The notes under the pieces: model-generated | What the model was told of the DNA's origin: nothing | Seen by the model: only the letters and a program-made list of their open reading frames with translations | The model's database searches: none | Part shown: piece by piece, positions 12,814 to 40,639 of the stretch | Numbering within the stretch: the first letter of the stretch is position 1 | Layout: the number at the start of each line of letters is the position of its first letter | Assembly: GCA_023667185.1 (NCBI GenBank) | Contig: JAMPAP010000002.1 | Location: forward strand, 150,978 to 214,977 | Source: Lachnoclostridium sp. | GTDB lineage: Bacteria; Bacteroidota; Bacteroidia; Bacteroidales; Muribaculaceae | Length of the DNA stretch: 64,000 bases | Reading direction: 5' to 3' | Translations under genes and position numbers: made by a program

Positions 12814-12840
12814 GATTAACCTAAAGCATTATCCATCAAT

Positions 12841-16361: not shown

Positions 16362-16412
16362 AAATAAAATATTATTGATTATAATTGAAAATACAAATTA
16401 AAAATATAAGCT

Positions 16413-17954: not shown

Positions 17955-17972
17955 CAAAACACGATTTTACTA

Positions 17973-21086: not shown

Positions 21087-21094
21087 TTTCAGAA

Positions 21095-21985: not shown

Positions 21986-21991
21986 AAACTA

Positions 21992-22798: not shown

Positions 22799-22801
22799 AA
22801 G

Positions 22802-25215: not shown

Positions 25216-25216
25216 C

Positions 25217-26443
25217 ATGAGATTACTATCAGAAGAGTCGTTCAGCCGCATTGAGCCGCTGATTGCCGATGATTATAAACGCACCCGCAGCCGCCTGGCG
25301 CTGTTGTTGTCCCCGCAAGACTGCGAAGTGTTTGCCCAGGTGGACCTGCTGCCCAACCGCGGCAAGTGGGTAGCCGATGTCCCCGGCCAGCTGATGCCCT
25401 ATTCCGAGGCTTCGGCCGCCGAGCGCGAGCAGATCGCAGCCTATCTCGAGGATAAGAAGCGCGCCATAGCCGCTGCCATCGGCGACAAGGTCCCCTACGT
25501 CAACGACCTTTTCCGTATCCCTGATGAAAACCAGATCTTCTGGTTCAAGGACAGCACCGGCAATGTCCGCGTAGTGCTGTCGCAGTGGGGATTCCGCCGC
25601 ATCAATGCTCCCGGCGACGTCGACGTGATAGAATTTCTCATCTCCCAGCCCCGCACAATGTCAATATGCGAGGTTGTGGCCAAGGGCGTATACTCTGACG
25701 GACAGCCTTACGCCTGCCAGCCCATCACGCTCTCGATTTTCGGCAATACATCTGAGGTAAAAACCGCTACTGATGGTACTTACTTCATAGGCAAAGTGCC
25801 CATGAACAAGGAATTCTCAATCACGGCCGATGGACAGATATACGACTTCGTGACAAGTGCTGACCGCGAAAGCTACGACTTCATTGTCAATCGCTACACC
25901 GGGTGGAGTGTCCGCGTCGTTGGTCAGAAAGGTGAGTCTGTAGCCAACTATCCGGTGAAGATCAACGGCCGCGACTGCATGACCGATGCTGACGGCATCA
26001 TCGCTGCCGATAATGTCATGATGACCGGCGATGACCGCCTGCAGGTAGAAGCTGAATATGGCGAACCGATGGAATACACCCTCTCTCCAGTCAGAGAAAA
26101 CAACGACTTCGAATACCGCGTTACTCTCCCTGTAAAAGAGGAAGTGAAGCCCCCGCTGCCCCCTGTGCCCCCCGAACCGCCGGTTAAGAAACCCGTCAGA
26201 GTGCATCTGCTCGACCTTGACGGCTCGCCCCTTGACTTCGTTGATGTATTCATTGACCAGCCCAACGGCACCACTGTCACCGCCACAACCGATGCCGACG
26301 GCTGGGCCACCTTCCCACGCGACACCTTTGTTGACAAGAAGAAGTCAAAGCTCCGCTTCAAGCTCACCAAGGAGTATCAGGAGCGTCGCCGCCAGATGAA
26401 AGAACAGCAAAAACAGCAACAAACTTCACAGAATCATGGCTAA
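25217..26443 (+). CDS. Cytoplasmic protein: N-domain shared with the S8 protease, CarboxypepD_reg-like beta-sandwich repeats, Pro-rich stretch, basic tail
   Basis: SAAEREQIAAYLEDKKRAIAAAI...VRVVLSQWGF resembles SGAEREKYERILDKTMRSIARSV...RVVITEWGM in 12841..15438. Repeats of the type TDADG.. occur. Pro-rich stretch: PPLPPVPPEPP. Confidence 0.65.
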   Translation: MRLLSEESFSRIEPLIADDYKRTRSRLALLLSPQDCEVFAQVDLLPNRGKWVADVPGQLMPYSEASAAEREQIAAYLEDKKRAIAAAIGDKVPYVNDLFRIPDENQIFWFKDSTGNVRVVLSQWGFRRINAPGDVDVIEFLISQPRTMSICEVVAKGVYSDGQPYACQPITLSIFGNTSEVKTATDGTYFIGKVPMNKEFSITADGQIYDFVTSADRESYDFIVNRYTGWSVRVVGQKGESVANYPVKINGRDCMTDADGIIAADNVMMTGDDRLQVEAEYGEPMEYTLSPVRENNDFEYRVTLPVKEEVKPPLPPVPPEPPVKKPVRVHLLDLDGSPLDFVDVFIDQPNGTTVTATTDADGWATFPRDTFVDKKKSKLRFKLTKEYQERRRQMKEQQKQQQTSQNHG

Positions 26444-28325
26444 ATCTCAGGATATCAACTATCAGAAAAAATTCAAGTTTGACCCCCGGCAGGACGAATA
26501 CGAATTCCAGCTCAAGAAGAAACGTAACTGGTGGTGGCTGCTGTTGCTGCTGTTACCCCTTCTGCTGCTGATCCGCTGCGAGCGCGACATGACCATAACC
26601 GTGGTCGACGATGATACCGACGAGCCTATCGAAGGAGCCCAGCTCAACTTAAGGTACACTTCCCATTATCTGCTCAAAGACTGGAAATTCCTCCTCAACG
26701 AGCCGGTGGCGCGCGAGGCTATTACTGATGTCGACGGAGAAGCACGTTTCGAGAAGCTCCCCTGCAGCGTCTACTCCTACATATTCTATTGCCTGAGCCG
26801 CGCTGCTGTCACGGCCTCCGACCCTTGCCATGAACCGGCCTCGATAATGCCGCTGGTTCACTACACATGGAATGCCGAAATCCGCCTCAAAAAGCTCCTC
26901 ACTGACGTCACCGTCACGGTGGTCGATGATGAGACCTCTGATCCAATCCCGGGGGCTGTGGTCACAGTAACCACCGGCGAAGTCACTGATTCCGTAACCA
27001 CAGATGCCGCCGGGCGTGTCAAGCTCGAAAAAGTGCCTCACTGTGGTATTATCGATGTGCTGAAAGGCTCGGCCTTCGGCTACGCTGATACCTTGCGGCG
27101 CAACCTGCCCGTGGCGCTGCTCGAAGACCCTGACAGCGCTTATCTGCGACTCCGTCCCGTCAAGGAGCGCTTCACATTCTTCGTCAAAGATGTGGAGACT
27201 CGCGAGCCGATCCCCGGTGCAACAGCTGTGGTGACCCTCGACGACCCCCGATCCGGCTATCGCGGCACTCATGAATACAAGACCAACGTCGATGGCCGCG
27301 GCATGGGATTCTACGACGAAGGGTTTATCCTCTCGCGCCTCAGCATAAAGGCCTCAAAAGTGCATTACAACGATTCCACCCTGAAGGGTGACTACACTAT
27401 CGGTGAATTTATAAAACTGCCTGACTCGCTTCGCACCGTATGGCTGCGCCCGATGCCATTTAACACTGAATTCCAGTGTATCGACTCCCTCTCGCGCAAG
27501 CCCATACCGGGAGTGGAAAATGTGATCACTGTCACTGACCCTGCCGGAAATACCGAGACCTATACCGAGATATCCAACCGCAATGGCAAATTCCCCGTCC
27601 ATGCCAAGGAAGGCTCCAAGATACATATCGACTCGCGTCTCCCCGGCGAGTACAAGGACAAGGCTACTGACATCCCCTCCTACGACGGAAAAGAGGAGAT
27701 CATCGAAATGATGCCTGACGTCACTCCGCTTGACGTAGACATGGTGATGGTGATTGACAACACCGGCTCAATGTCAGGAACCATAGGTATGGTAAAGCGC
27801 AATGCCTCGAATTTCTATTCTGACCTCAACGAGGAATGTGTGAAACATAAACTGTATATCAACAAGTTCCGCCTGAAGGTGATCTCGTACGGCGACCTGT
27901 CAGAAAAGCCGTTCAATGTATCACCGCTATATGAATTACCTGACCAGACTGCTGCTTACAAAGCATTCGTAAGCTCAATTATAGCCGCCGGAGGTGGCGA
28001 TGAGCCTGAGGATGGATTGCAGGCCGTGCGCGACGCCATGTCGACATCCTGGGTAAGCGGGCCGCAGCTCAAGCGCCATGTGATCGTCGTGTACACTGAT
28101 GCTCCGACCCATAGTATGTCATCCGGCGACTTCGACGCCATTAAATCCAAATGGATGTCAATGGATCCCGATTCGCGGCGCATGATCCTCTTTGCCCCGG
28201 CTAAAGATTCATGGAACACGCTGGCCACCTGGCCTCAGGTAAGTCACGAGACCGGTTCGCTCTCGTCAGTGCTCGCCGGAACCGGTTACGCCAACGTCCT
28301 CGAAAATATCTGTAAATCACTCTAA
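26436..28325 (+). CDS. N-terminally anchored periplasmic protein: four CarboxypepD_reg-like repeats plus a C-terminal von Willebrand factor A (vWA) domain
   Basis: TM segment KKKRNWWWLLLLLLPLLLLIRC. Repeats are ITVVDDDTDEPIEGAQ, VTVVDDETSDPIPGAV, FFVKDVETREPIPGAT and FQCIDSLSRKPIPGVE. The MIDAS-like motif is VMVIDNTGSMSG (about 27750), followed later by GGGDEPEDG and VVYTDAP. Confidence 0.8.
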   Translation: MAKSQDINYQKKFKFDPRQDEYEFQLKKKRNWWWLLLLLLPLLLLIRCERDMTITVVDDDTDEPIEGAQLNLRYTSHYLLKDWKFLLNEPVAREAITDVDGEARFEKLPCSVYSYIFYCLSRAAVTASDPCHEPASIMPLVHYTWNAEIRLKKLLTDVTVTVVDDETSDPIPGAVVTVTTGEVTDSVTTDAAGRVKLEKVPHCGIIDVLKGSAFGYADTLRRNLPVALLEDPDSAYLRLRPVKERFTFFVKDVETREPIPGATAVVTLDDPRSGYRGTHEYKTNVDGRGMGFYDEGFILSRLSIKASKVHYNDSTLKGDYTIGEFIKLPDSLRTVWLRPMPFNTEFQCIDSLSRKPIPGVENVITVTDPAGNTETYTEISNRNGKFPVHAKEGSKIHIDSRLPGEYKDKATDIPSYDGKEEIIEMMPDVTPLDVDMVMVIDNTGSMSGTIGMVKRNASNFYSDLNEECVKHKLYINKFRLKVISYGDLSEKPFNVSPLYELPDQTAAYKAFVSSIIAAGGGDEPEDGLQAVRDAMSTSWVSGPQLKRHVIVVYTDAPTHSMSSGDFDAIKSKWMSMDPDSRRMILFAPAKDSWNTLATWPQVSHETGSLSSVLAGTGYANVLENICKSL

Positions 28326-28331
28326 ATCGAT

Positions 28332-29456
28332 ATGCCTAAAACCAATATGTCACCCGTCAAGGAGCAGCTTCTCCGCCACATGAAGGAAGCCCCGCAATAC
28401 TACCATCCGGCACTGTTGCGCGACATCCTTGACGGCCGACTTGGGGATGCTGACGACTACGCCCTCATGCCCGGCCCGATGAAGGAGTTCATCGAGTCAG
28501 GGCAGAGGCTTACGTGGGAGGAGATCCTTGGGGCCGGAGTGCTTCCCCGGCCGCTTCCCCGCGAGGTGGTGACCGCTGATGAGGATATGCGCCTACCCGT
28601 CTACTCCGTTAAGCAGTATGAGGGCGGCATCGTAGCTCCGCATCGCACTGACGTGTTTATCCTCGGCGTGGCCGGTACAGGAAAATCCTCTCTTGCCTGT
28701 AGCCTTATCCGCCAGCTCGTGGATGTGTGTGAGTATGAGTATCAGCCTATGAAGTCCTCGCCCGATGATGCCAAGACTGCTGATTATTATAATGCTGTCA
28801 TGGACATAACTTTGCGGTTCAACAAGCCCGTGGCTCCTTCGCTCAACGATAACCTACTTTTCACCCAGCTTCGCGACACCCATTCTCGCCGCCGCCTTAC
28901 CATTATTGACGGTGACAGCAATGATATGTCAGATCTGGCACGGATCAACACCCCTGACGGAGTGATATTCAAGAAATACAATATCTACCGTATCATGGGC
29001 AACCGCAACTCCAAGATCCTGCTACTGCTCTTCAACTATCGTCAGATCAAGACCTCCGGCCATCGCACCATGTTCAACCAGTCAATGCTCATCGAGCGCT
29101 TCCTCAATGCCATGACATCTGACGGATCACCCGATAATCCCGAAAAGGATAGCTCGTTCAGCCGATTGAAAGGACTGGTATTTGTGTTTACAAAGTGCGA
29201 CAATCAGGATCCTGACGCGCTGAATGTCATCAACCGGTTTCTTGAAGAGCATCTCAAGACTGTGATGATGCGGCTCGACATCATCAACCGCCGTTTCGGC
29301 ATCAACAAGGAGAATGGCTACCGCCCGTATATCCTCCCCGTTACCCTCGGGCAGTTTACCATCGGAAACACGTTCATCTACAACCCGGAAACATCCATAA
29401 ACCTTGCCAAACTTATCACCTCGATTACACCTACGCAGTGGCCCTGGCAATGTTGA
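28332..29456 (+). CDS. TRAFAC-type GTPase-like protein, paralog of 16413..17954, with a degenerate G3
   Basis: G1 FILGVAGTGKSSLA (about 28666) and G4 FVFTKCDN. The G3 position reads LTIIDGDSND, with no DxxG glycine. The C-terminus GYRPYILPVTLGQFTIGNTFIYNPETS matches DYRPYFLTFSLGNFYVGNTVVFNPDDS in the paralog. Confidence 0.65.
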   Translation: MPKTNMSPVKEQLLRHMKEAPQYYHPALLRDILDGRLGDADDYALMPGPMKEFIESGQRLTWEEILGAGVLPRPLPREVVTADEDMRLPVYSVKQYEGGIVAPHRTDVFILGVAGTGKSSLACSLIRQLVDVCEYEYQPMKSSPDDAKTADYYNAVMDITLRFNKPVAPSLNDNLLFTQLRDTHSRRRLTIIDGDSNDMSDLARINTPDGVIFKKYNIYRIMGNRNSKILLLLFNYRQIKTSGHRTMFNQSMLIERFLNAMTSDGSPDNPEKDSSFSRLKGLVFVFTKCDNQDPDALNVINRFLEEHLKTVMMRLDIINRRFGINKENGYRPYILPVTLGQFTIGNTFIYNPETSINLAKLITSITPTQWPWQC

Positions 29457-29494: not shown

Positions 29495-30949
29495 ATGTTA
29501 GATATAATCGCTAAAAACCCGTTCCGCATCCTCGGTGTCTACTCTGACTCCGGCCTGCGTGACATCGTGGCCAATCGCAACCGCATCAATGCCTTTGCGA
29601 AAGTGGGGAAGCCCTGTACGTTTCCTACTGATCTTGCCTCACTCGCCGGACCGGTTGACCGCTCGCCCGAATCAGTGCAGGCTGCTGACTCGGCTCTTAC
29701 CATCGATGCTGACAAACTGAAATATGCTACCTTCTGGCTTATGAAGGGGGAGCCGGCTGACGCTGACGCCCTCCGTATGGCCTCGGAAGGAAACATAGCC
29801 GGTGCGCTCGCCTCGCTCGAGAGCCGCAGCTCCATGGCCTCGCTTCAGAACCTTGCAGTCATCAGCCTGATGCGCAACGATATCCGCAAGGCTTCAGTGG
29901 CTTTCGCAAATATGACTGACCGCTATGCCGCAAACTTCTACTCGGCTATCGGACTCAATGTCGGCGGCACGGAAACTCTCGTGGATACATACGTGAAGAC
30001 ACTCCTGGAGAATGACAGCACGATCGATGCGGCCGTGTTTACCGGTAATGATTATCCCGCCTCGTGGAATGCAACTGTAAAAGACGTGGCCGCTGTGCCC
30101 GTCATCTCCCAGCTTGAGGCGTTGATAGCCGAGGCCCGCAAGTCGAAGGACGGCAGCCCCGTAGAGCGTCTCAAAGCCGGTATCAACCTCTCCAAGAAGT
30201 CAAAACCGCTGCTGATGAAGCTGCGCAATATGCTGACCACCAAAGATCTCAAACTCGTCAATATATCTGACAAGGTAGGCAACGAGGTGCTTCAGTGCGG
30301 TATCGACTTCTATAACGATTCTGACGACATTTCTACTGCCAAGGATGCCCTCGCTCTTGCCAAGGATGCCCGCATGATAGTGCTCGGCTCCATGGCCCGC
30401 CAGCGTTGCGACGAGAATATCAAGACCCTCGAAAACAATGCCGCTCTTATCCCGTCAGCCGCTATTCAGGCCGACGTTAATGCTATCAGTGTAGCTCTCA
30501 ACGACTTCACCTCCCACAACCAGTCGTTTGACTCGCTCATCAGCCTCCTTGACCTTGTAGAGCCTCACCTGAAGAAGATGAAGGACACTGTAGGTGAAAA
30601 TGATCCTATCTATATCAACTGGTCAACAAACGTAGTGAATGTAGCTCTTAACCTGATCATCGACAAGGTTAATGCTGCACAAAATGTAGCAGGCAATGGC
30701 TCTAAACAGCTTCAGGACTATGTCACATATGTCGCAATGGCTCACGGTTTCATGAATCGTCTGTCGAAATACGCGATGGATCAGGCGTGCCGCAATCGAT
30801 TCAATACCAATAACAATACACTCAATGATCTTTATGCCCAAACCAAAAATGTCAATACCGGCGGCAGCAGCGATTCCGGCTTCAGCAGCTGCTTTATACA
30901 GATCCTGATTTATTTGGGTATCATGGCATTAGTGGGAATGTGTAGTTAA
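29495..30949 (+). CDS. Tail-anchored helical protein with a J-domain-like N-terminus that lacks the HPD motif
   Basis: NPFRILGVYSDSGLRDIVANRNRINAF resembles J-domain helix I/II (DYYEILGV...). No HPD tripeptide follows. C-terminal TM: FIQILIYLGIMALVGM. The family call is weak. Confidence 0.45.
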   Translation: MLDIIAKNPFRILGVYSDSGLRDIVANRNRINAFAKVGKPCTFPTDLASLAGPVDRSPESVQAADSALTIDADKLKYATFWLMKGEPADADALRMASEGNIAGALASLESRSSMASLQNLAVISLMRNDIRKASVAFANMTDRYAANFYSAIGLNVGGTETLVDTYVKTLLENDSTIDAAVFTGNDYPASWNATVKDVAAVPVISQLEALIAEARKSKDGSPVERLKAGINLSKKSKPLLMKLRNMLTTKDLKLVNISDKVGNEVLQCGIDFYNDSDDISTAKDALALAKDARMIVLGSMARQRCDENIKTLENNAALIPSAAIQADVNAISVALNDFTSHNQSFDSLISLLDLVEPHLKKMKDTVGENDPIYINWSTNVVNVALNLIIDKVNAAQNVAGNGSKQLQDYVTYVAMAHGFMNRLSKYAMDQACRNRFNTNNNTLNDLYAQTKNVNTGGSSDSGFSSCFIQILIYLGIMALVGMCS

Positions 30950-30969: not shown

Positions 30970-31899
30970 ATGAAAAAATATTTTACAATGCTTGCTCTTG
31001 CAGCGGCAATGACAATGTCGGCACAGATGCCGGGTATCCCTTCAGAAAATCTCGCTGATTCGCTTAAGGCGGTTAATAAGGAGCTCGTTACCATTAACGA
31101 TGCTGTAAAAAAGAATGCCGAGGATATAAAGGCAGTCAATGAGTGCATTGACGCCACTGAAAAGGCTTTCGTTGCCAAAACTGACTCAATGACAGCCGAG
31201 GCCTCCGCGCTCGCGGCTCGCGTTGACGATATCAACTCTACTCTCAATGCCGCCATCGAGAAGGTGAACGAGACCCTCGGCACCGAGATCCGTACCACCA
31301 AGACTGAGGTGACAACGCGCACCGGCTCGCTGCTGACATACGGTATTATTGCGGCCATCGTGCTACTCCTTCTTGTTGTGGCTGCATATATGATACTTCG
31401 CAAACGTATCGGCGACGGCAGCGTGGATCTTGACACGGTCAAGGAGGCTAACAAGCAACTTCAGGAGCAGTCAGTCAGCCTTGACAATAAGCTTACTGAA
31501 GTGCTTCAGCAACAACTCGCCATGGCTGATACGCTGAAAAAGGCCACGGCAAACAGCTCTTCCGAGCCTGATCACTCTCTGGAGCTATCGATTGCCAACG
31601 AGCTCGCCCGCATAGAGCAGAACCTCGCTTTCATGGATCCCAAAACCAAGGGTGTGTCACAGCTTAAAAACCGTGCAGCGGCTATCAGCGAAGCTCTCAA
31701 AAAGAAGGGCTACGAGATTGTGCCGATGCTCGGCCAGGATTACAAGGAGGGCATGAACGTGGAGGCCACGATGGAGGAGGATGACACTCTCGAGCCCGGT
31801 AAGCAGATTATTCGCCGCGTTAGCCGTCCGGCCGTGCTCTACAAAGGATCTATGATACAGCCCGCTCAGGTAGTGGTGGCTTTCAACCCCGAAGACTAA
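30970..31899 (+). CDS. Membrane-spanning protein with a cytoplasmic GrpE-like C-terminal domain
   Basis: It has a signal peptide (MLALAAAMTMSAQ), a periplasmic coiled coil, and the TM segment LLTYGIIAAIVLLLLVVAAYMIL followed by RKR. The C-terminus KKGYEIVPMLGQDYKEGMNVEATMEEDDTLEPGKQIIRRVSRPAVLYKGSMIQPAQVVVA follows the GrpE beta-domain pattern (G.E.I...G...dp..h.A.......PG.V..V...GY...G..iRpA.V.V). Confidence 0.6.
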   Translation: MKKYFTMLALAAAMTMSAQMPGIPSENLADSLKAVNKELVTINDAVKKNAEDIKAVNECIDATEKAFVAKTDSMTAEASALAARVDDINSTLNAAIEKVNETLGTEIRTTKTEVTTRTGSLLTYGIIAAIVLLLLVVAAYMILRKRIGDGSVDLDTVKEANKQLQEQSVSLDNKLTEVLQQQLAMADTLKKATANSSSEPDHSLELSIANELARIEQNLAFMDPKTKGVSQLKNRAAAISEALKKKGYEIVPMLGQDYKEGMNVEATMEEDDTLEPGKQIIRRVSRPAVLYKGSMIQPAQVVVAFNPED

Positions 31900-31920: not shown

Positions 31921-34422
31921 ATGGCATCACTTAAAATAATATACGGTATCGACCTCGGTACCACCAACTCGGCAATCACCCGATTCGAAAATGGTAAGGC
32001 CGTAGTAAAGAAAAATTCGCTCCAGAGTGACACCACACCATCTGTTGTGGCATATCGCGCCCAGGGTAAGGCCCCTTCGGTAGGCTCACGTGCAAAAACT
32101 CAGCTTGAGAAGGATCACGTGATGGCCTTCCGCAAGCCGGGCTATAAGTCAAACGTATTCCATGAGTTCAAGCGCGTGATGGGCACTGACCATAAGTTTT
32201 TCTCTTCAGCGCTTAATGCCGAGCTGACTCCTGAGGATCTTTCGGCCGAAGTGCTAAAAGAGCTGCGTAAGAATATCCTTGATGATGAGGTCTCATCGGC
32301 CGTAATCACCGTCCCTGCGATGTTTAATAACACTCAGAAGGATGCAACCAAGCGAGCTGCAAAACTCGCCGGATTTGACCATGTAGAGCTTATTCAGGAA
32401 CCGGTGGCCGCATCTGTGGCTTATGGTTTGTCCTCAAAGATGAAGAATGCTTACTGGGTGGTGTTTGACTTCGGTGGCGGTACATTTGACGCTGCTCTGA
32501 TGCGTATCACTGACGGTATCATGCAGGCTATAGACACTGCCGGTAACAACAAGCTCGGCGGCAAGGATATCGACAACGCTATAATCGAGCAGATTATGAT
32601 CCCATATTTCCGCTCCAACTATACAATTGAAAACATCCTGACCAACAATCGCAAGGCCTTTGCCGAGGTGTGGAAGGCAAAGGCTGAGGAGGCGAAGATT
32701 AACCTTTCGTTCAACTCATCGTATGAGCTCGAGACTGACCTCGGCGAGGATTACGGTACTGATGATCTCGGCGATGAGCTTGCCCTCTCGCTCACCATCA
32801 CTCAGGATGATCTGGAGCGTGTGGCTGCGCCCATCTATCAGAAAGCCATCGATATAACCAAGGAACTGCTTGCCCGCAACGGTATCAACGGCAAGGATCT
32901 CGGCGCTCTTATCCTCGTGGGCGGTCCTACACATTCGCCCATTGTGCGTCGTATGCTCCGCGAGCAGGTGACTCCGAATGTCGACACTTCTATTGACCCG
33001 ATGACCTGTGTGGCTGCCGGGGCTGCCATCTATGGCTCTACAATAGATGTCCCTGAGGAGATTGCTGACACCAAGCGTGACCGCTCCAAGGTGCAGCTCG
33101 CCGTGACTTATCAGAGTACCTCAGTCGAGACCGAGGAGTGGGTGTCAGTATCGCTGCTCCGTGACAAGTGTGACAACTACACCGAGCCTACGGTGAGAGT
33201 GGAATTTGCCCGCACTGACGGCCTGTTTACCTCGCCCGCCTCAGAAGTGGATGCAGCCGGCGACGTTGTATCGCTGATGCTCAAGCCGGATGCTACAAAT
33301 ACGTTTGATATCCGCTGCTACGACAGCCGCGGCACACGCCTCGAGTGTGAACCATCGCAGATCTCCATCATTCAGGGTGTGGCCGGATTAGGCGATGCTG
33401 TCATCCCTATGGCTCTCGGTATCGGTGCTACCAATAAGGATAATGTCGAAGTATTCATCCCCATTCAGGGTCTCGAGAAGAGCCGCAAGCTCCCCGCTTC
33501 GGGAAGTACTCGCTCTAACGGACTTCGCACACAGAAGGATATTCGCCCAGGTGTGGAGTCTGACACCGTCAGAATGTCTCTTTATCAGACCGAGGATGTG
33601 GGCGAAAACGTCAGAGTGCTCTATTGCCAGCGCATCTACGATGTACTGGTCACCGGCGAGGATGTACCCGTACTCGTGCCTGCCGAGAGTGTGATAAATA
33701 TCAACCTCCATGCCGAGCGCTCGGGCACAATCGATAAGTTTGAGATCGAGATTCCGAGCATCAACTTCACTCTCGACCTTACCGAGCGCATGAGCAAGAG
33801 CACCACATCAGCTCTCTCCGAAAGCTTCCTTGTGCATGAGATATATGATGCCAAGACCCGCGCCCGCCGCCTTGATAATGCCGCCTTGATCAACCGCATT
33901 GACCTTCTTGAGCAGCGCCTGAAGAATGCTGCCGGCGACCGCGATGCCCTCGATGGTATCTTTGCCGAGCTCCAGTCAATCGGTCGCGAGATCGATCATC
34001 AGATGTCGCTCGGCGAATGGGATCGCGAGGCTGCCCGACTTAAGTCAATGTTTGCCGAACTCTCAAACGATAACGTCAAGTATGGCAACGCTGATACCAC
34101 CGCTCTAATCGAGCAGATCAAGAAGGAGATGGACAAGGTGCTCGAAAGCCGTAACGTCCAGCTTGCCAAGGATCTTTACAGCCAGATGTGGAATCTCGAC
34201 TTCCGCATCGCTGAGGTGGAATTCTATATCGCATGGATACAGCAATGGAACAGCGAGTTTGCCCGCAAGAACTGGACTAATCCCTCGCGTGCCCGCCAGC
34301 TCGTTGACAATGGTCTGTCCATCATCCGCCAGGGCTCGCCTACGGCCGATGCTCTCCGCCCCATTGCCTTTGAGCTCAACGATATGCTACCCGAACACCA
34401 GAAAACCGATACTCTTCACTGA
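31921..34422 (+). CDS. Non-canonical Hsp70 (DnaK-family) ATPase, 833 aa
   Basis: IYGIDLGTTNSAI, VITVPAMFNNTQKDATKRAAKLAGF, VFDFGGGTFDAAL and LVGGPTHSPIVRRML. SBD-beta-like: IPMALGIGATN...VFIPI. An extra segment of about 115 aa lies between the NBD and SBD, and the helical C-terminus is long. Confidence 0.9.
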   Translation: MASLKIIYGIDLGTTNSAITRFENGKAVVKKNSLQSDTTPSVVAYRAQGKAPSVGSRAKTQLEKDHVMAFRKPGYKSNVFHEFKRVMGTDHKFFSSALNAELTPEDLSAEVLKELRKNILDDEVSSAVITVPAMFNNTQKDATKRAAKLAGFDHVELIQEPVAASVAYGLSSKMKNAYWVVFDFGGGTFDAALMRITDGIMQAIDTAGNNKLGGKDIDNAIIEQIMIPYFRSNYTIENILTNNRKAFAEVWKAKAEEAKINLSFNSSYELETDLGEDYGTDDLGDELALSLTITQDDLERVAAPIYQKAIDITKELLARNGINGKDLGALILVGGPTHSPIVRRMLREQVTPNVDTSIDPMTCVAAGAAIYGSTIDVPEEIADTKRDRSKVQLAVTYQSTSVETEEWVSVSLLRDKCDNYTEPTVRVEFARTDGLFTSPASEVDAAGDVVSLMLKPDATNTFDIRCYDSRGTRLECEPSQISIIQGVAGLGDAVIPMALGIGATNKDNVEVFIPIQGLEKSRKLPASGSTRSNGLRTQKDIRPGVESDTVRMSLYQTEDVGENVRVLYCQRIYDVLVTGEDVPVLVPAESVININLHAERSGTIDKFEIEIPSINFTLDLTERMSKSTTSALSESFLVHEIYDAKTRARRLDNAALINRIDLLEQRLKNAAGDRDALDGIFAELQSIGREIDHQMSLGEWDREAARLKSMFAELSNDNVKYGNADTTALIEQIKKEMDKVLESRNVQLAKDLYSQMWNLDFRIAEVEFYIAWIQQWNSEFARKNWTNPSRARQLVDNGLSIIRQGSPTADALRPIAFELNDMLPEHQKTDTLH

Positions 34423-36179
34423 TGATTTACAAAGCTAAAGATACAATACTTGACCGCTACACTGTCCTTTTCCCGATAAAGGAAGGAGCCTACGCCGAGT
34501 CGTATCGCGTGAAAGATGCTGCCGGCAAGCGGTATTTCTTCAAGCTGATTGACCGGTCCAGGCTTCAGCCCGAGCAGATCGATGACTATGGGCGTGTGCG
34601 CGAAATAGAGATCGTAAAGGATTTGGCTCACCCATGCCTCCCGGCTATGATCGAGTCGGGCGAGGTGACTATCGGCGGCAAGGAGTACGAATACCTTGTC
34701 AACAAATATGTGCCCTCCGAGACCCTTGCTGACCGCCTTCAGCGCGCGCAGACCCTCAAAATGTATGATATCAAGGCCATAGCTCGCGGAGTGCTCTCGG
34801 CTCTGACAGCGCTGCATGAGAATGACAATCCGGTGATCCACAATGAGGTCACGGCTCTGAATGTGCTGATGGATCTGTCGGTCGACGATCCGTCGGCTGT
34901 ATGCCTTATCGACTTTGGCTATGCCCGCCATACTGACGAGGCTCATGGCCAGTCGATCGAGGGGCTCAACTGGTTTTACCTCGCTCCGGAACGGTTTGAC
35001 GGCGCTTCAACGGTGCAGAGCGACCTCTATTCAGTAGGAGCTCTGCTATATCAGCTGACCTTCGGGCTGCTCCCCTGGTTCTGCGACCTCTCGACCATAG
35101 CTCCCGAGAAGCGTAAGCAGTATATCCTGCGCCAGAAGCACACCGCATTGCTGATGCCCGTAGTGGATAAGTTTGAGCTCGACGATCGTTTCCTCAACAT
35201 CCTCCGCAAAGCTCTTGCTGCTGATGTCGACGAGCGTTTTCAGTCGGCCCGGGAGTTTCTTGACGCCATCGAGGGAAAAGGCGAGGTGATAGCGCCGTCG
35301 CAGAATCCTGCTACGGCTGATGATCGCCGCGATGCTTTCTCAGCTTCGCGTCAGCGCTCCGGCAACGGGTTTGAGGATGTGGCAGGTATGACAGAGCTTA
35401 AGGAAATGCTCCGCAAGCGGGTGCTCAACATCCTGCGCGATACCGAGAAGGCAAAGCGTTACAAGCTTCAGATACCCAACGGTATACTCTTCTACGGCCC
35501 TCCCGGATGCGGCAAGTCGTTTCTTGCTGAGAAGTTTGCCGAGGAAGCCGGCTACAATTTCAAGCTCGTGAAGGCATCTGACCTGGCGTCTATCTATGTT
35601 CACGGCTCGCAGGAAAAGATAGGCCAGCTCTTTGACGAGGCACGCAAGAATGCGCCTACGATCCTCTGCTTCGACGAGTTTGACGCTCTGGTGCCGGCTC
35701 GCGGTACGCAGGGCGCCGAGCACCAGTCGGGCGAGGTCAACGAGTTTCTTACCCAGCTCAACAACTGCGGCGAGACCGGCGTCTTCGTCATCGCGTCGAC
35801 CAATCGTCCCGACATGATCGACCAGGCCGTGCTGCGTCGCGGCCGTATTGACCAGGTGATTTTCATCCCGGTGCCTGATGCCGAGAGTCGTGCCGCGATG
35901 TTTGAGCTCCATCTCAAGGGTCGCCCCTTCGACACCTCGATCGACTATTCAGCACTCGCTGCCTTGACTGAGAATTACGTGGCAAGTGACATAGCCTACG
36001 TGGTCAACGAGGCCGCAGCCCGCGCAGCGTTTGCTGACGAGAAGATCACTTCCGAGCATCTCGAAGAGGTAATCTCCGAGTGCCGCCCTTCGCTCAACGA
36101 GGGCGCGCTGCGCAACTACGACAAGCTACGCGAAAAAATGGAAGGCATCGTGGAGTCACGGCGCCGCATAGGTTTTTAA
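34422..36179 (+). CDS. Fusion of a Ser/Thr-kinase-like domain (atypical catalytic loop) and a classical-clade AAA+ ATPase
   Basis: Kinase-like motifs: YFFKLI (beta-3 Lys), IHNEVTALNVLMD in place of HRDLKPxN (34839..), DFGYA (34911..) and YLAPERF. AAA+ motifs: Walker A GPPGCGKS (about 35496), Walker B ILCFDEFD, sensor-1 IASTN and the Arg-finger region DQAVLRRGRID. Confidence 0.85.
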   Translation: MIYKAKDTILDRYTVLFPIKEGAYAESYRVKDAAGKRYFFKLIDRSRLQPEQIDDYGRVREIEIVKDLAHPCLPAMIESGEVTIGGKEYEYLVNKYVPSETLADRLQRAQTLKMYDIKAIARGVLSALTALHENDNPVIHNEVTALNVLMDLSVDDPSAVCLIDFGYARHTDEAHGQSIEGLNWFYLAPERFDGASTVQSDLYSVGALLYQLTFGLLPWFCDLSTIAPEKRKQYILRQKHTALLMPVVDKFELDDRFLNILRKALAADVDERFQSAREFLDAIEGKGEVIAPSQNPATADDRRDAFSASRQRSGNGFEDVAGMTELKEMLRKRVLNILRDTEKAKRYKLQIPNGILFYGPPGCGKSFLAEKFAEEAGYNFKLVKASDLASIYVHGSQEKIGQLFDEARKNAPTILCFDEFDALVPARGTQGAEHQSGEVNEFLTQLNNCGETGVFVIASTNRPDMIDQAVLRRGRIDQVIFIPVPDAESRAAMFELHLKGRPFDTSIDYSALAALTENYVASDIAYVVNEAAARAAFADEKITSEHLEEVISECRPSLNEGALRNYDKLREKMEGIVESRRRIGF

Positions 36180-36200: not shown

Positions 36201-36692
36201 ATGATAAAAGATAATTTGAATCTCGCTACAGCCTTCGCATTTATGGCATGCGACGGCGATATCTCGCCCGATGAGGTGAAGTTGATAAAGCAGATGAATG
36301 CTGACGGCATCATCCCGTGTGACGATGTCGACGATAAGCTCGAGCAGCTACTCGGGCAGCTCAACGCCCGCGGTCACGGCTTTATGAAAGACTATTTCCA
36401 GGCCGTCACTGACGCTGACCTTGACGCCGACGCGGCTCTCGCGCTACTCAAGATTGCCGTCGCCACCATCTATGCCGACGAAATCGTGGAATACTCCGAG
36501 GTGAAGTTTTTCCGAGCCGTGCGCTCGCATATCCTCTCAATGACCGATGAGCAGATCCTCGAGGCTATCCCCGAGGTTGAGGACTTTTGGCTGGAGTCTG
36601 ACGTCAAGTCGGCCGCTCCGGGCTACCTCGACCAGCAGTATATGGAAGCTGTCGAGCTACCGCAGTTTGACATCGCATCATTGAAGAAGTAA
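36201..36692 (+). CDS. TerB-like (tellurite-resistance TerB / DjlA N-domain type) protein
   Basis: Two copies of the TerB-type motif: FMACDGDISPDEVKLIKQM and IYADEIVEYSEVKFFRAV. All-helical, 163 aa. Confidence 0.65.
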   Translation: MIKDNLNLATAFAFMACDGDISPDEVKLIKQMNADGIIPCDDVDDKLEQLLGQLNARGHGFMKDYFQAVTDADLDADAALALLKIAVATIYADEIVEYSEVKFFRAVRSHILSMTDEQILEAIPEVEDFWLESDVKSAAPGYLDQQYMEAVELPQFDIASLKK

Positions 36693-37744
36693 TGGATAAG
36701 GTATTTATAAGCTACCGCCGCGATACGGGGCAGGATATCGCCCGCGGCCTCAACGACCGTCTCACCCAGCGCGGCATCAAGACCTTCTTTGACCGTGAGA
36801 CGCTCCATAACGGCAAGTTTAACCAGCAACTGCTCGGCGCCATCCGCGAGTGCCGCGACTTCATACTTGTGTTCTCCAAGGGCGCCCTTGACCGCTGCGT
36901 CAACCCTGACGACTGGGTGCGCACCGAGATCGAGTGTGCTCTGAAGCTGCATAAAAACATTGTGATAGTCTACACCATCCAGCCGCTCGAATTTCCGGCC
37001 AATCTCCCCGCGTCGCTCAACGAGCTGAAGTTTTACCAGGGCGTGTATCTCAACCATGAGTATTACAACGAGAGCATTGACCGCATCATCAACCACCTCG
37101 AGACCGGGCGTCAGCTCCATCGCAGCCGCGTCTTGACATGGGGATGCGTGGCTCTGGCCATTATCGTGACTGCCGCGTGGATGTACTTCGGCCATGAAAA
37201 GAACGCTGACTCTCAGCCCGCTGCCGTAGAGGATAGCGTGGCAGTGGTTGAGGAAGAGCAGATTGTAGTGGAGCAGCCTTCAAAGAAGAAGTCTACCCCC
37301 GTGCAGCAAGCCCCCTCAAAGCCCGTCGAAAAGTCTACCCCGGCCGTGGAGGAAAAGTCTCAGCCCGCAGCTACCCAGCCTGTAACCACCCAGCCTGTCG
37401 CCACTCAACCCGTAGCAACTCAGCCGCAGACACCCCGCAAGAGCGACGTGGAGCAGCTTGCCGAACGAGCTGCCTCGGGTGATGCCGCCGCAGCCTGTCA
37501 GATGGGTCTGCGGTTCCTTAACGGCGATGGCGTGTCAAAAAATTTCAAGACCGCCTTTGCATATTTCAACCAGTCGGCCTCGGCCGGTAACATCGATGGT
37601 ATGTACTGGCTCGGATACTGCTATCGCATGGGGCGCGGCACTTCCAAGGATTTAAATAAAGCCAAGCAATTGTGGAAACGCGCTGCCTCGGCGGGAAATG
37701 CCCGTGCCGCCCACGACCTCGAAGAAATCGAATCATTAATGTAA
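36692..37744 (+). CDS. TIR domain - TM - Pro/Thr/Gln-rich linker - Sel1 (SLR) repeat protein
   Basis: TIR: VFISYRRDTGQDIARGLNDRLTQRGIKTFFDRETLHNGKF...FILVFSKGAL...DWVRTEIECAL, with the conserved Glu present. TM: VLTWGCVALAIIVTAAWMYFG. Sel1: AACQMGLRFLNGDGVSKNFKTAFAYFNQSASAGNIDGMYWLGYCYRMGRGTSKDLNKAKQLWKRAASAGN. Confidence 0.85.
   Translation: MDKVFISYRRDTGQDIARGLNDRLTQRGIKTFFDRETLHNGKFNQQLLGAIRECRDFILVFSKGALDRCVNPDDWVRTEIECALKLHKNIVIVYTIQPLEFPANLPASLNELKFYQGVYLNHEYYNESIDRIINHLETGRQLHRSRVLTWGCVALAIIVTAAWMYFGHEKNADSQPAAVEDSVAVVEEEQIVVEQPSKKKSTPVQQAPSKPVEKSTPAVEEKSQPAATQPVTTQPVATQPVATQPQTPRKSDVEQLAERAASGDAAAACQMGLRFLNGDGVSKNFKTAFAYFNQSASAGNIDGMYWLGYCYRMGRGTSKDLNKAKQLWKRAASAGNARAAHDLEEIESLM
37370..37429 (+). 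repeat. Four tandem 15-nt coding units (ATQPV TTQPV ATQPV ATQPQ) in the TIR-Sel1 linker
   Basis: The four units gctacccagcctgta, accacccagcctgtc, gccactcaacccgta and gcaactcagccgcag were read directly. Confidence 0.85.
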
Positions 37745-38745: not shown

Positions 38746-40320
38746 ATGAGATGGCTTCTCTCCATACTGATGCTCGCATCGCTTTCAATCCTTGTCGCCA
38801 ATCCCCTCCCCGCCAACGATTTGCGCCGTTACGGTGGTAAAAATCCTTTTGAAAACGATTTGGTTGATGATCTCGAGCTTACCTACTCCGGAAATCAGTT
38901 GCAGAATGTAACCGATGCCGCCACTGACTTTCCTTACTCAGAGTCACTCGATTTCAGAGCCCGTAAACATACAATCTTTACACCCGGCGATAAAATAGCC
39001 ACGGTATTTGACCGTTATGACGGGATTGTAGCTGACTCACTTGTGTTGGAACCCTACATTCCTTTCAATTCCACTGATTTCTCTTATGATGCCAACGGCA
39101 ATGTATGCCGCGACTTCCATTCAGGCATCTCATCGATATCATACAATCCTTTAAACCTGCCACAGAAGGTCAACTATAGCGACGAGGAAATCATTGCAGC
39201 GCGACTGCCACTTGTTACCCAAATATCATACACTTATGATGCCCTTGGGAAGAAGCACTCCGTCAATGAATGTCGGAAACTGGGCAATCGTATCCTGTCA
39301 CAGGGTGACAAGATCAGTTATATCGGAGACTACATTGTAGTAAATGACACAATAGATCGTCTGATGACTCCTTACGGATACCTTCGCAATGGAGTGTTTC
39401 ATACATATCTGCGCGACTATCAGCAAAACATAGTATGCGTAGTGACACCCGATGACGTTATACAGACCAATATTTATTATCCCGACGGCCTGACCACATC
39501 CAACTCCACCGGCGTAGCAGCCAACACATTCAAGCATACCGGTAAAGAGCTCCTTCTCGGACATGGTTTGCCCAGATATGACTTCACAGCCCGATTCACA
39601 CAGCCCTCCACCGGAAATCACTTCCGGTCAATCGACCCCAACGCCGAAACCTATACAAAGTTATCACCTTACACCTTCTGTGCCGGTGACCCCATCAATA
39701 ATACCGACCCCTCCGGCCGAGATGTATTTATTTTATATTATAGCGAATGGGCTTGTCACCTTGCTATGTTGATTCAAAATAATGAAGGTAAATGGCAGTA
39801 TTATTCGATTAATGGTACTAAGTCTTATTATTCTTGGGGAAGTTCTGGGAGTGGTTCTCTTAATGGATCGTCCTCCGGCTTAAGTCATGATGATGTAGGT
39901 GTAGGTAATTGGGACAGTCCGGAGGAATTTCTGAATTCAGACTATAATTCTGAGGGAGACAAAGAAGATCCAAATATAAATCACTATGGCTATAATCAAG
40001 GATTATACATCCCAACCAGCCAGGAACAAGATCAACAAATGTCGGAAGACTTTAGGACACTTTCAGAAAAAACGAAATATAATGTATTTAATAACAACTG
40101 CGCAACAGCAGTTCAATTAGTATTACATAATGCAAAGATTCCTATAACGAGGACAGCAAGAAATAATCCTGATAATATGCATAGAATTGAAATCAATCAG
40201 AATATGAAAAGGGATAAGAGTTATAAAGAGTTACAATTTTTACCATATTGTGCATATACATCAATTAGACAAAATACTCTAAATCGCAGAACGATTTGGC
40301 GTAAGGGAAAAGGTCGATAA
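38746..40320 (+). CDS. Short Rhs/YD-repeat protein with an Rhs core end motif and a variable C-terminal toxin domain
   Basis: YD-type repeats FSYDANGNVCRD and YTYDALGKK. The core end is RYDFTARFTQPSTGNHFRSIDP...YTFCAGDPINNTDPSGR. The roughly 200 aa after DPSGR are encoded by markedly AT-rich DNA. Confidence 0.8.
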   Translation: MRWLLSILMLASLSILVANPLPANDLRRYGGKNPFENDLVDDLELTYSGNQLQNVTDAATDFPYSESLDFRARKHTIFTPGDKIATVFDRYDGIVADSLVLEPYIPFNSTDFSYDANGNVCRDFHSGISSISYNPLNLPQKVNYSDEEIIAARLPLVTQISYTYDALGKKHSVNECRKLGNRILSQGDKISYIGDYIVVNDTIDRLMTPYGYLRNGVFHTYLRDYQQNIVCVVTPDDVIQTNIYYPDGLTTSNSTGVAANTFKHTGKELLLGHGLPRYDFTARFTQPSTGNHFRSIDPNAETYTKLSPYTFCAGDPINNTDPSGRDVFILYYSEWACHLAMLIQNNEGKWQYYSINGTKSYYSWGSSGSGSLNGSSSGLSHDDVGVGNWDSPEEFLNSDYNSEGDKEDPNINHYGYNQGLYIPTSQEQDQQMSEDFRTLSEKTKYNVFNNNCATAVQLVLHNAKIPITRTARNNPDNMHRIEINQNMKRDKSYKELQFLPYCAYTSIRQNTLNRRTIWRKGKGR

Positions 40321-40337
40321 TTATTAACTATTTTACG

Positions 40338-40637
40338 ATGAAGATATTATCATGGCGAACGAAAGTGAGGCTGATAAAAGCTATACAGTTTTTATTGGTG
40401 GCAGCGCTGTTTGGATACGGTTTGTTCCTAATGATTATTTCTGCGATTTATCCGGCAAATTTTTCGTTGTTCAAGTATTTCTACGCGGCGCTATTGTTAT
40501 ATGGATTAATAAATCTGACATTATTTCGCGAAGCCGTTTCTTGGAAACGAACTATGAATATCATGCTGTTTTTGAGTCTGACGCCTGTGATTAATTATGT
40601 TATATTTGGGTTTCTTTGTGGATTGCTTTTTCATTAG
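40338..40637 (+). CDS. Small 3-TM membrane protein; candidate immunity protein 1
   Basis: It lies immediately downstream of the toxin tip and has the same AT-rich composition. Hydrophobic segments: FLLVAALFGYGLFLMIISAIY, YFYAALLLYGLINLTLF and IMLFLSLTPVINYVIFGFLCGLLF. Confidence 0.5.
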   Translation: MKILSWRTKVRLIKAIQFLLVAALFGYGLFLMIISAIYPANFSLFKYFYAALLLYGLINLTLFREAVSWKRTMNIMLFLSLTPVINYVIFGFLCGLLFH

Positions 40638-40639
40638 TC

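Follow-up and report, generated by a model that had tools for sequence, protein, structure and literature searches.

The kinase-AAA protein

A bacterial gene that joins a kinase-like domain lacking the usual catalytic aspartate to an AAA+ module of the Cdc48 type, and that starts where an Hsp70 gene stops, raises the question of what a kinase fold would do in front of a protein-unfolding motor and beside a chaperone. The gene lies at 34422..36179, on the forward strand, of a stretch of 64,000 nucleotides (hereafter the window) from contig JAMPAP010000002.1 (positions 150,978 to 214,977; assembly GCA_023667185.1, Lachnoclostridium sp., placed by GTDB in the Muribaculaceae), and its product is called kinase-AAA below. 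A first, sequence-only reading had taken it for a pseudokinase or an atypical nucleoside triphosphate (NTP)-binding sensor that drives an unfoldase. We find that kinase-AAA is a new domain architecture made from known kinds of parts, that its altered catalytic loop is a conserved state, and that the gene marks an apparently undescribed Hsp70-centred cassette. The reading that fits best, to which we give an even chance of being right, is that kinase-AAA forms a hexameric unfolding motor whose N-domain, a pseudokinase, is modulated by nucleotide, and that it works with the co-translated Hsp70 at the membrane, with a TerB-like protein as sensor or adaptor, in the service of conflict or defence. 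The features of the gene are as follows (related loci and proteins are cited below by their L and P numbers).

34422..36179, + strand: kinase-like/AAA+ fusion open reading frame (ORF), 585 residues (Pfam; two-domain architecture common to 120 homologue clusters)
34422..35291, + strand: Hanks-type kinase fold, predicted pseudokinase N-domain, residues 1-290 (Pfam Pkinase, phmmer against PDB, AlphaFold2)
34479..34511, + strand: modified Gly-rich loop KEGAYAESYRV, residues 20-30 (KEGAYAES being 20-27), with K20 for the first Gly, G22 kept and A25 for the third Gly
34530..34550, + strand: beta3 strand RYFFKLI with K41, Lys in 118/120 homologues
34602-34604, + strand: E61, the alphaC Glu and salt-bridge partner of K41, Glu in 119/120
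34836..34862, + strand: catalytic loop IHNEVTALN, residues 139-147, with E142 at the HRD-Asp position, T144 at the Lys position and N147 kept
34911..34919, + strand: DFG, residues 164-166, metal-binding Asp kept (D164 in 117/120)
34983..34991, + strand: APE, residues 188-190 (E190 in 120/120 homologues and 51/51 fused representatives)
35292..35366, + strand: interdomain linker, residues 291-315, variable and of low model confidence (AlphaFold2, sequence identity)
35367..36101, + strand: single classical-clade AAA+ module, large subdomain at residues 316-500 and lid at 501-560 (Pfam, phmmer, Foldseek)
35496..35519, + strand: Walker A, GPPGCGKS, residues 359-366
35592..35609, + strand: pore loop 1, I-Y392-V-H-G-S, aligned to M-W-Y-G-E-S of Cdc48 D2
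35661..35678, + strand: Walker B, ILCFDE, residues 414-419 (D418, E419)
35790..35852, + strand: sensor 1 (N461) and second region of homology, LRRGRID, with Arg fingers R472 and R475 (from conservation)
36147..36176, + strand: disordered C-terminal tail, residues 576-585, ending RRRIGF-COOH (family motif basic-[IV]-G-[FY])

Both halves are recognised at the level of sequence and of predicted structure. Pfam places Pkinase at residues 19-274 (E 1.8e-26; 93.6 bits against a cut-off of 31.7), AAA (PF00004) at 355-483 (E 6.4e-34; 117.7 bits, above the cut-off) and AAA_lid_3 at 507-548 (29.2 bits, likewise above it). When compared with PDB sequences by phmmer, the kinase half matched CDPK1 (3ma6; E 7.6e-17) and also MARK, PknB and StkP, over a range of E 1e-17 to 1e-12, and the AAA half matched the D2 domain of Cdc48 (E 3.6e-45) and p97. 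An AlphaFold2 model based on 44 homologues has a mean predicted local distance difference test (pLDDT) score of 85 and exceeds 90 over residues 1-290, and with the Pfam and PDB matches behind it this bears out the kinase-like fold proposed earlier, while its extent, given then as 270 residues, is corrected to about 1-290. In the linker pLDDT falls to 54-72 in ten-residue blocks across residues 291-320, and below 50 at 308-314, and the last seven residues of the protein are disordered (pLDDT <50). A Foldseek search with the model returned p97/Cdc48 at the top (E 1e-21 to 1e-23). Every motif that the sequence-only reading had quoted for either half was recovered by translation, and the overlap between the Hsp70 stop and the kinase-AAA start is present in the sequence (cacTGATGatt).

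For the homologue set 5.8 billion proteins were searched, 8000 word-sharing candidates were scored and the best 120 clusters were kept (clusters at the 90% identity level, 50-100% identical to the query). All 120 have the kinase-plus-AAA architecture, one of them (P0054) with extra AAA-type domains, and public records call such proteins 'AAA family ATPase' or 'transitional endoplasmic reticulum ATPase'. The AAA core is on average 73% identical to the query, the kinase half 46% and the linker 25%. The fusion was not found in the phage collection, where the matches were generic FtsH-like AAA domains only.

A conserved HNE in place of HRD

The correspondence of the catalytic loops comes from the phmmer alignment to CDPK1, in which 'vihnevtalnvlm' stands over 'ivhrdlkpenlll', so that E142 falls at the position of the HRD Asp and T144 at that of the Lys; the register of the Gly-rich loop was set by the same kinase. 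Among the 120 homologues the loop is near-invariant and reads H140-N141-E142-[IV]-T144-x-x-N147 (H140 in 119, N141 in 118, E142 in 114, T144 in 115 and N147 in 119), D201 and R272 are each present in all 120, and HNEIT and DFG also occur in WP_013769014.1, the orthologue from the cultured Haliscomenobacter hydrossis. The earlier reading had asked whether close relatives would show HRD, and they do not. That HNE is a sporadic mutation, a sequencing error or the mark of a decaying gene has a negligible chance of being true, because Glu is found in 114 of the 120 homologues from many independent assemblies, the ORF is full length and the AAA+ motifs are intact.

The Gly-rich loop had been called degenerate. 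It is indeed non-canonical, since K-x-G-x-Y-A keeps the central Gly alone of GxGxxG, but it is not decayed: its consensus in the 120 homologues is K20-[EQ]-G22-x-Y-A-[EQD]-T-Y-R-V, with K20 invariant in the 44-sequence alignment A1, and it is better described as a conserved alternative motif.

In operational terms a pseudokinase is a kinase domain from which the beta3 Lys, the HRD Asp or the DFG Asp is missing (PMC12599244, PMC4718504), and of these the HRD Asp and the DFG Asp are required for catalysis, not for ATP binding (PMC4718504). Set beside a competent Hanks-type kinase, kinase-AAA has the fold together with the beta3 Lys, alphaC Glu, loop Asn and DFG Asp, and lacks the HRD Asp, the loop Lys and GxGxxG. 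Judged by these residues, the domain is a pseudokinase under the operational definition, its HRD Asp being replaced by a conserved Glu, and the set K41, E61, N147 and D164 fits NTP binding, so that both sides of the original proposal, pseudokinase or atypical NTP-binding domain, appear sound. A Thr instead of the loop Lys does not by itself argue for inactivity, because it is the commonest state in the fused family described below (27 of 51 representatives) and is also found in the active Bud32 kinase.

Decay of kinase residues in the wider family

To collect the wider family, 1.84 billion cluster representatives were searched exhaustively by phmmer, the kinase half alone serving as query, and the motifs were tabulated for 51 fused representatives of 50%-identity clusters. 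The position of the catalytic base is held by Glu in 14 of them, Asp in 13, Asn in nine, Gly in five, Ala in four, Ser in three, and Gln, Thr and Arg in one each. The beta3 Lys, loop Asn and DFG Asp are all kept in 14/14 of the Glu types and 10/13 of the Asp types, and they are usually lost too in the Asn, Gly, Ala and Ser types. The APE Glu, D201 and R272, which are structural residues of the C-lobe, are kept in 50-51 of the 51. HRD-x-K was not found in any fused member of the family; it was seen only in unrelated stand-alone or multi-kinase proteins lower in the match list, and the more distant fused relatives carry HND or degenerate variants.

The states at the base position are interleaved in a neighbour-joining tree, a rough one (BLOSUM distances, midpoint root) that shows interleaving and not counts of events. 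P0024 (HNN, GFE) and P0027 (K to T, HNA, NFE) are nested inside the query's own HNE clade, and P0049 (HSR) and the protein of L006 (HNG, GFE) retain complete Hsp70/TerB operons, with Walker A/B, sensor 1 and Arg fingers intact. As to the order of events, we infer that the ancestral fused protein probably read HND-x-T and that the change from Asp to Glu took place within the Hsp70-linked clade, because an HND protein, that of L089 (P0128), has the Hsp70 and TerB neighbours.

Since the base position varies and the pocket decays repeatedly while the AAA+ motifs stay intact, the alignments indicate that phosphotransfer is dispensable for the conserved function, and the HNE lineage still keeps what appears to be a complete nucleotide-Mg pocket. 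The picture that these residues give is of a kinase fold with a conserved structural core, a fast-evolving surface and an active site that is either altered but apparently intact (HNE, HND) or fully decayed, and the domain would thus behave as a recognition or regulatory N-domain of the pseudokinase type.

The AAA+ module and its C-terminal tail

The AAA+ half had been described as intact, and its match to Cdc48 D2 and the conservation of its motifs agree with this. All the hallmarks of the classical clade are present, namely Walker A and B, the sensor-1 Asn, a second region of homology with two Arg, the lid and an aromatic pore loop 1. Among the 120 homologues Walker A is invariant except for P361 (119/120) and an S/T exchange at residue 366, the Asp of Walker B is found in 119 and its Glu in all, and N461, R472, G474, R475 and D477 are each present in 120/120. 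In pore loop 1, where Y392-V393 is aligned with W-Y of Cdc48 D2, Y392 is conserved in 119/120 and H394 and G395 in 120/120, and an aromatic residue (Y, F or W) is kept in distant homologues. Kinase-AAA is predicted to form hexamers, bind nucleotide and unfold proteins.

In nearly all of the 169 fused members a linker of polar, low-complexity sequence leads to basic-[IV]-G-[FY], at most about six residues from the C-terminus. This tail is shared by the Hsp70-linked and YbjN-linked clades and by the AAA-only paralogue, all three described below. Its conservation suggests a putative docking peptide for a partner, and because it is conserved across clades with different operon partners the target would be a shared one. 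Comparable peptides are the IGF loop of ClpX, the basic-hydrophobic client motifs of Hsp70 and the HbYX tails found on proteasomal ATPases; as a flexible tail with a short hydrophobic motif, it resembles in particular the HbYX tails of PAN and of archaeal Cdc48.

A conserved five-gene core centred on Hsp70

Kinase-AAA is the fourth gene of a conserved and tightly packed core of five, of which the other four are listed here.

29495..30949, + strand: core gene 1, 484-residue helical protein with a C-terminal transmembrane anchor, conserved across loci
30970..31899, + strand: core gene 2, 309-residue membrane protein (signal or transmembrane segment, coiled coil, transmembrane segment), conserved in 11 loci
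31921..34422, + strand: core gene 3, atypical Hsp70 of 833 residues (nucleotide-binding domain, enlarged beta region, long helical lid), its stop overlapping the kinase-AAA start
36201..36692, + strand: core gene 5, TerB-like protein of 163 residues (PF05099 in orthologues), its stop overlapping the start of a TIR gene

The adjacency to an Hsp70, which had been remarked upon from the start, proved to be a conserved and translationally coupled feature of the operon and not a coincidence. In this Hsp70 the Pfam match (HSP70, E 1e-68) covers the nucleotide-binding domain only, the sequence match to DnaK is likewise confined to that domain, and a sequence search with the C-terminal half matched no solved substrate-binding domain. 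Its AlphaFold2 model (pLDDT 89; predicted template modelling score, pTM, 0.80) shows the nucleotide-binding domain, the enlarged beta region and the long helical lid, and according to Foldseek it superposes on full-length DnaK and BiP, substrate-binding domain included, with a template modelling (TM) score of 0.78-0.80 and a root-mean-square deviation of about 4.9 Å. The ATPase signature residues are invariant in alignment A4, and the protein carries a beta insert of about 110 residues in addition to its enlarged lid. Of eight orthologues of the TerB-like protein seven match PF05099 (best E 1.6e-5) and the eighth matches DUF533, and the Haliscomenobacter orthologue is named 'TerB family' in RefSeq.

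The first two core proteins are harder to place. Orthologues of the 484-residue protein were identified by sequence in L001, L002, L006, L013, L085 and L095, and by size and position in L091-L094. It has no Pfam or NCBIfam match, and in seven orthologues there is neither a DnaJ Pfam match nor an HPD motif. Its start (29495-29620, alignment A3) reads NPYRxLGV, within a conserved NP[YF]RxLG[VL]...AN..R...F.KVGK..(F)P.D that resembles helices I-II of a J-domain, and hhalign gives a weak match to the J-domain of DnaJ (P 0.011, 26 columns). With no DnaJ match in the seven orthologues and an hhalign match of 26 columns only, the resemblance to a J-protein is kept as a hint. In the 309-residue protein about 65 conserved residues (aa 240-305, alignment A5) fall in register with the beta-domain of E. 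coli GrpE over 64 columns, a weak hhalign match (P 8.6e-4, probability 24%) to an E. coli sequence entered by hand, and the protein shows no match to the GrpE gene of L081. This is a hint that the 309-residue protein, if GrpE-like, would be a membrane-anchored nucleotide-exchange factor for the Hsp70 of the operon.

Among the matches listed, the core order is found in the window, in L001 (Muribaculaceae), L002 (Flexilinea, Chloroflexota), L006 (Daejeonella) and L013 (another Bacteroidota), in the metagenomic contigs L085, L091, L092, L093 and L094, with L089 truncated by the end of its contig, and on plasmid pHALHY02 of Haliscomenobacter hydrossis DSM 1100 (L095; HALHY_RS33400-33420, WP_013769011 to WP_013769015); the core thus occurs in Bacteroidota and in one Chloroflexota genome. 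The arrangement had been called unusual, which holds relative to the literature and does not hold as to rarity, the arrangement being common in gut and rumen Bacteroidota. In L001 there are two tandem paralogues of the 484-residue type (3035-6509), and the same locus has a stand-alone AAA-only paralogue of 329 residues (L001:13762-14751), which is 43% identical to the AAA half and ends in ...RIGFYV.

A variant of the core (L081-L084) has a Pfam GrpE gene and other genes between a 756-residue Hsp70 and kinase-AAA, with a TerB/DUF533 gene downstream, and it is only in this variant that a true Pfam GrpE gene was found. Over 12.3-19 kb of each, L081 and L084 have identical core genes, including the same 587-residue kinase-AAA (P0087), and a block consisting of a TIR gene, a 724-residue gene, a 614-residue Hsp70 and a 140-residue gene is present in L081-L083 and absent from L084, which indicates cassette-like gain or loss of accessory genes.

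In a sister clade (L087:636-7439; L008:9544-16580; L003, L005 and L009) the catalytic loop is HND and DFG is replaced by D-[LM]-[GS]-H, and kinase-AAA adjoins one or two YbjN/TY-Chap1-like proteins of about 127 residues, which resemble type III secretion system chaperones, instead of the Hsp70 and TerB. The L087 and L008 loci also have a P-type cation ATPase of about 900 residues and a protein of about 450-480 residues. Given the two sets of partners, kinase-AAA would therefore be a portable module, accompanied in either setting by one small adaptor-like protein and one large partner driven by ATP.

Genomic context

Around the core the neighbouring genes vary, and three of those in the window are accessory.

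26436-28325, + strand: membrane vWA/CarboxypepD_reg protein, accessory module (Pfam)
28332-29456, + strand: 374-residue P-loop NTPase-like protein, accessory module
36692..37744, + strand: protein with TIR, transmembrane and Sel1 segments, a variable accessory or effector gene (TIR_2 1.7e-12, Sel1 3.4e-17; PADLOC TIR effector models)

The module of vWA and P-loop genes (26436..29456) lies upstream of the core only in the window and, among the loci listed, in L091 and L092, the closest relatives among them. The start of the TIR gene overlaps the TerB stop (TAATG), and the gene is absent from most related loci; in its product the TIR domain keeps W75-x-x-x-E79, and a predicted transmembrane helix and a Pro/Thr/Gln-rich linker precede the Sel1 repeats. 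W-x-x-x-E is a motif of the type seen in TIR proteins that are NADases.

Elsewhere the flanks contain a different TIR gene (L081; missing from the otherwise identical L084), a caspase and a CHAT gene (L092), NAD synthase, an FGE-sulfatase and a second Hsp70 (L093), a leucine-rich repeat (LRR) protein of 931 residues (L094) or a HepT/MNT toxin-antitoxin pair (L085). In L095 (NC_015512.1, 1738-27504) the core stands between SIR2 with two WD40 genes and a BREX-1 system. Between pglZ and brxC this BREX-1 system contains an McrBC-like pair ('5-methylcytosine restriction system component-like' and an AAA ATPase).

PADLOC gave partial and generic matches to kinase-AAA (mad6 and PD-T4-6, E 1e-34; IetA, E 3e-32) and also matched the TIR gene. 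No NCBIfam model reaches its cut-off on kinase-AAA, no description of the cassette was found in the literature, NCBIfam or PADLOC, and the family is absent from the oral-microbiome PKL preprint and from the review of bacterial pseudokinases (PMC12599244). The location in defence islands with variable effector-type neighbours points to a conflict system as the most likely role, and it is from this context that we infer a part in defence.

Possible function and alternative explanations

If kinase-AAA is the unfoldase proposed above, its kinase fold would hold the position of the p97/Cdc48 N-domain and act in recognition or regulation, and canonical phosphotransfer would have been given up through the change of the base from Asp to Glu, of Lys to Thr and the rewriting of the Gly-rich loop. 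Because the ATP-Mg pocket (K41, E61, N147 and D164) is complete in this clade, the domain is most likely a pseudokinase that binds nucleotide and serves to gate the motor or to target it. The five products may assemble into a membrane-proximal machine with two ATPases, in which the Hsp70 would capture a client, the hexameric AAA+ ring would thread or dismantle it by means of the Tyr-Val pore loops, and TerB and the pseudokinase would give the trigger or adaptor input; the role could be anti-phage defence or abortive infection. It may further be speculated, with distinctly less confidence than in the unfoldase itself, that the cassette is an unrecognised chaperone immune system, in which the Hsp70 and the pseudokinase-gated unfoldase dismantle invader assemblies or release TIR or caspase effectors, and in which the tail docks the ring on a shared partner such as ClpP, in the manner of a ClpX-like protease adaptor.

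Several points weigh against the unfoldase proposal. Its evidence base is computational (sequence, predicted structure and gene context), the geometry between the kinase and AAA domains is uncertain (the full-length model has a pTM of 0.55), and the J-like and GrpE-like assignments of the first two core genes are weak. The replacement of Asp by Glu is conservative and keeps the carboxylate, the rest of the pocket is under strong purifying selection, and residual or atypical catalysis may persist. As to defence, the Hsp70, TerB and the two membrane proteins are without a match among the PADLOC models, L085 and L094 are flanked by ordinary metabolic genes, and the assignment depends on the company of the core in about 5 of 13 neighbourhoods.

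The objection from the pocket leads to an unlikely alternative, in which the domain is an active atypical kinase with Glu142 as its base and K20 in place of the loop Lys, phosphorylating the Hsp70, TerB, itself or an invader, and using the AAA+ half for oligomerisation or delivery. The conservation of the ATP-Mg ligands and of an acidic base in the HNE clade and in 10 of the 13 HND representatives is what one would expect of such an enzyme, the strict alternative Gly-rich loop with its invariant K20 suggests a functional and not a decaying pocket, and the best PADLOC matches of the kinase half are the active defence kinases MAD6 and PD-T4-6 (E 1e-34). Bud32, with a Thr at the Lys position, would be a precedent, and WNK, PRPK and Haspin were all once classed as pseudokinases (PMC4718504). 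On the other hand, in P0024, P0027, P0049 and L006 the acidic residue is gone, and with it the DFG Asp, the beta3 Lys or both, but all four keep the AAA+ module, L006 and P0049 with the operon as well; as these decayed lineages belong to the same clade and operon, catalysis is not essential to the module. Besides, no fused member has the Lys of Ser/Thr kinases, and no phosphatase partner is conserved in the operon loci examined. The decayed lineages speak equally against a very improbable alternative, that the pocket is used for another kind of reaction, such as SelO-like AMPylation, SidJ-like glutamylation or Rio/Bud32-like ATP hydrolysis, with the Hsp70 or a client as the modified protein. 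Pseudokinases with a conserved pocket and alternative activities are known (SelO, SidJ, SdjA; PMC12599244), BiP/Hsp70 is a known target of AMPylation (6eof and 5o4p are among the Foldseek matches of the Hsp70 model) and there is a weak NCBIfam match to Bud32 (E 8.6e-5), yet neither Pfam nor NCBIfam showed a specific relation in sequence to SelO, SidJ or Fic, and the best matches are ordinary Hanks-type kinases.

A further alternative concerns the role and not the chemistry, and we regard it as improbable: the cassette would serve housekeeping or stress proteostasis and not immunity, for instance quality control of membrane proteins or envelope or metal stress, with kinase-AAA extracting or disaggregating membrane-associated clients that the Hsp70 passes on to it. 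An Hsp70 with an AAA+ motor follows the classic bi-chaperone logic, as in DnaK-ClpB, two of the core proteins are membrane-anchored, stress of the envelope and by metals is associated with TerB domains, and metabolic genes surround several of the loci; the sister clade, with its P-type cation ATPase and YbjN-like chaperone, also looks more physiological than immune. DjlA, which joins a TerB-like domain to a J-domain and works with DnaK, would be an analogy. What speaks against such a role is the patchy phyletic spread, the plasmid location between SIR2 and BREX, neighbours (TIR, caspase/CHAT, LRR, HepT/MNT) that vary even between near-identical loci, and a recognition half that evolves fast. 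Patchiness, variable neighbours and fast evolution are hallmarks of conflict systems as PMC7159879 presents them.

Should the pseudokinase unfoldase be confirmed, a pseudokinase would be a new type of N-domain for classical AAA+ unfoldases, and a large, Bacteroidota-centred family would join the short list of bacterial pseudokinase families, with a natural series from HND through HNE to full decay that is suited to asking what a kinase fold does after catalysis is lost. It would also define a conserved Hsp70-centred cassette in defence islands, and, given protection against phage, protein remodelling as immunity would be a new mechanistic class; to our knowledge, none of the established anti-phage systems is an Hsp70 machine. 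Gut and rumen Bacteroidales carry the cassette in abundance, and with a cultured strain that also has it the proposal is directly testable.

Relation to known systems

With Cdc48/p97/VAT, FtsH and PAN, kinase-AAA shares Walker A/B, sensor 1, the second region of homology with two Arg, the aromatic pore loop 1 and AAA_lid_3, and with p97/Cdc48 it shares a non-ATPase N-domain ahead of the ring, where p97 binds adaptors and substrates. It differs from Cdc48/p97 in having a single AAA module instead of D1 and D2 and a kinase-fold N-domain instead of a double-psi-barrel, and from FtsH in lacking a transmembrane segment and the M41 peptidase. Membership of either family was accordingly rejected: the CDC48 model (TIGR01243) scores 182.9 bits against a cut-off of 802.65, there being one AAA module, and the FtsH model (TIGR01241) scores 178.9 bits against 600, there being no peptidase or transmembrane region.

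Candidate defence systems were rejected in the same way. For IetAS, the IteA model scores 96.1 bits against a cut-off of 510, the IetA match in PADLOC is partial and there is no IetS protease beside kinase-AAA, the nearest subtilase lying about 19 kb upstream; for PD-T4-6 and MAD6 of MADS, MADS6 scores 110.4 bits against 460 and the PADLOC matches are confined to the kinase domain. PrkA/YeaG also unites an AAA+-type ATPase and a kinase-like domain in one bacterial polypeptide; both of its halves come from subfamilies unrelated to those of kinase-AAA, its domain order is the opposite, and neither PrkA nor AAA_PrkA is among the 14 Pfam families found at E<=0.01. CoCoNuT systems have a McrB-like GTPase with coiled-coil nucleases, and Hsp70 in them is a fused unit of nucleotide- and substrate-binding domains (PMC11090510); a CoCoNuT/McrBC-Hsp70 identity was discarded, as McrB and McrC domains are absent from the core genes.

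There are parallels for the kinase half as well. Kinase-STAND fusions such as PknK offer one comparison, and the CP1 pseudokinases with a COG3899 ATPase (PMC12599244) another, for these also have a cytosolic, compromised Hanks domain fused to a P-loop ATPase and a motif decay that varies within the family. From this variable decay it follows that some members of the kinase-AAA family probably bind ATP and others do not. Unlike the CP1 proteins, kinase-AAA has a classical AAA+ domain of the unfoldase type and not a STAND/COG3899 signalling ATPase, is Bacteroidota-centred and belongs to an Hsp70 operon; the terms 'Bacteroid', 'fused' and 'Hsp70' do not occur in PMC12599244.

Hsp70-DnaJ-GrpE and ClpB/Hsp104 form the bi-chaperone disaggregase. 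The cassette resembles it in pairing a two-domain Hsp70 with a hexameric AAA+ threading motor, the hexamer being predicted here, and in the GrpE gene of the L081 variant, and differs from it in having a single-ring classical AAA+ with a pseudokinase N-domain instead of a two-ring Clp/Hsp100 with an M-domain, in being mobile, patchy and island-borne, and in the beta insert and enlarged lid of its Hsp70.

Shango (TerB with an ATPase and a helicase) also uses a TerB partner; no Shango model in PADLOC matches the TerB of the core. A published framework with similar themes is that of the NTP-dependent conflict systems (Kaur, Burroughs, Iyer, Aravind 2020; PMC7159879). Built on MoxR-vWA or DO-GTPase-GAP1, these systems surround an unchanging core of NTPase and chaperone with effector-type neighbours that vary, and they have their Hsp70 themes mainly in Actinobacteria and Firmicutes. 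What they share with the cassette is TIR, caspase/CHAT, FGE-sulfatase and vWA neighbours, Hsp70, GrpE and J-type components and proximity to the membrane, whereas neither the DO-GTPase-GAP1 pair nor the FNIII component appears to be conserved with the core; the GAP1-N2 DO-GTPase systems, for example, have Hsp70/GrpE/DnaJ, vWA and kinase themes. The 374-residue P-loop and vWA genes, candidate components of this kind, are absent from most core loci. A kinase-AAA+ fusion is not described in the parts of PMC7159879 considered here, and TerB occurs nowhere in that paper.

Other genes of the island

The core belongs to a co-directional, tightly spaced, superoperon-like island of about 32 kb and 21 genes, which ends before dxs (41000-42754, - strand). 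The array starts at 6565-15438 with SrfB (PF07520, E 4e-160), Virul_Fac (PF10139, E 2e-99) and an S8 subtilase of 865 residues, and continues at 15483-26443 with seven ORFs without a Pfam match and one with MG4/CarboxypepD_reg. The Virul_Fac protein presumably corresponds to SrfC. A relation between the upstream SrfB gene and the GASH domain of PMC7159879 was considered and rejected, on the parts of that paper used above.

Downstream, the stretch 38746-40945 contains an ORF of 524 residues without a Pfam match, which has an RHS-core-like '...DPINNTDPSGRD' junction before its C-terminal region and is followed by three small, strongly hydrophobic ORFs. By motif only, this arrangement suggests a putative polymorphic toxin with immunity genes.

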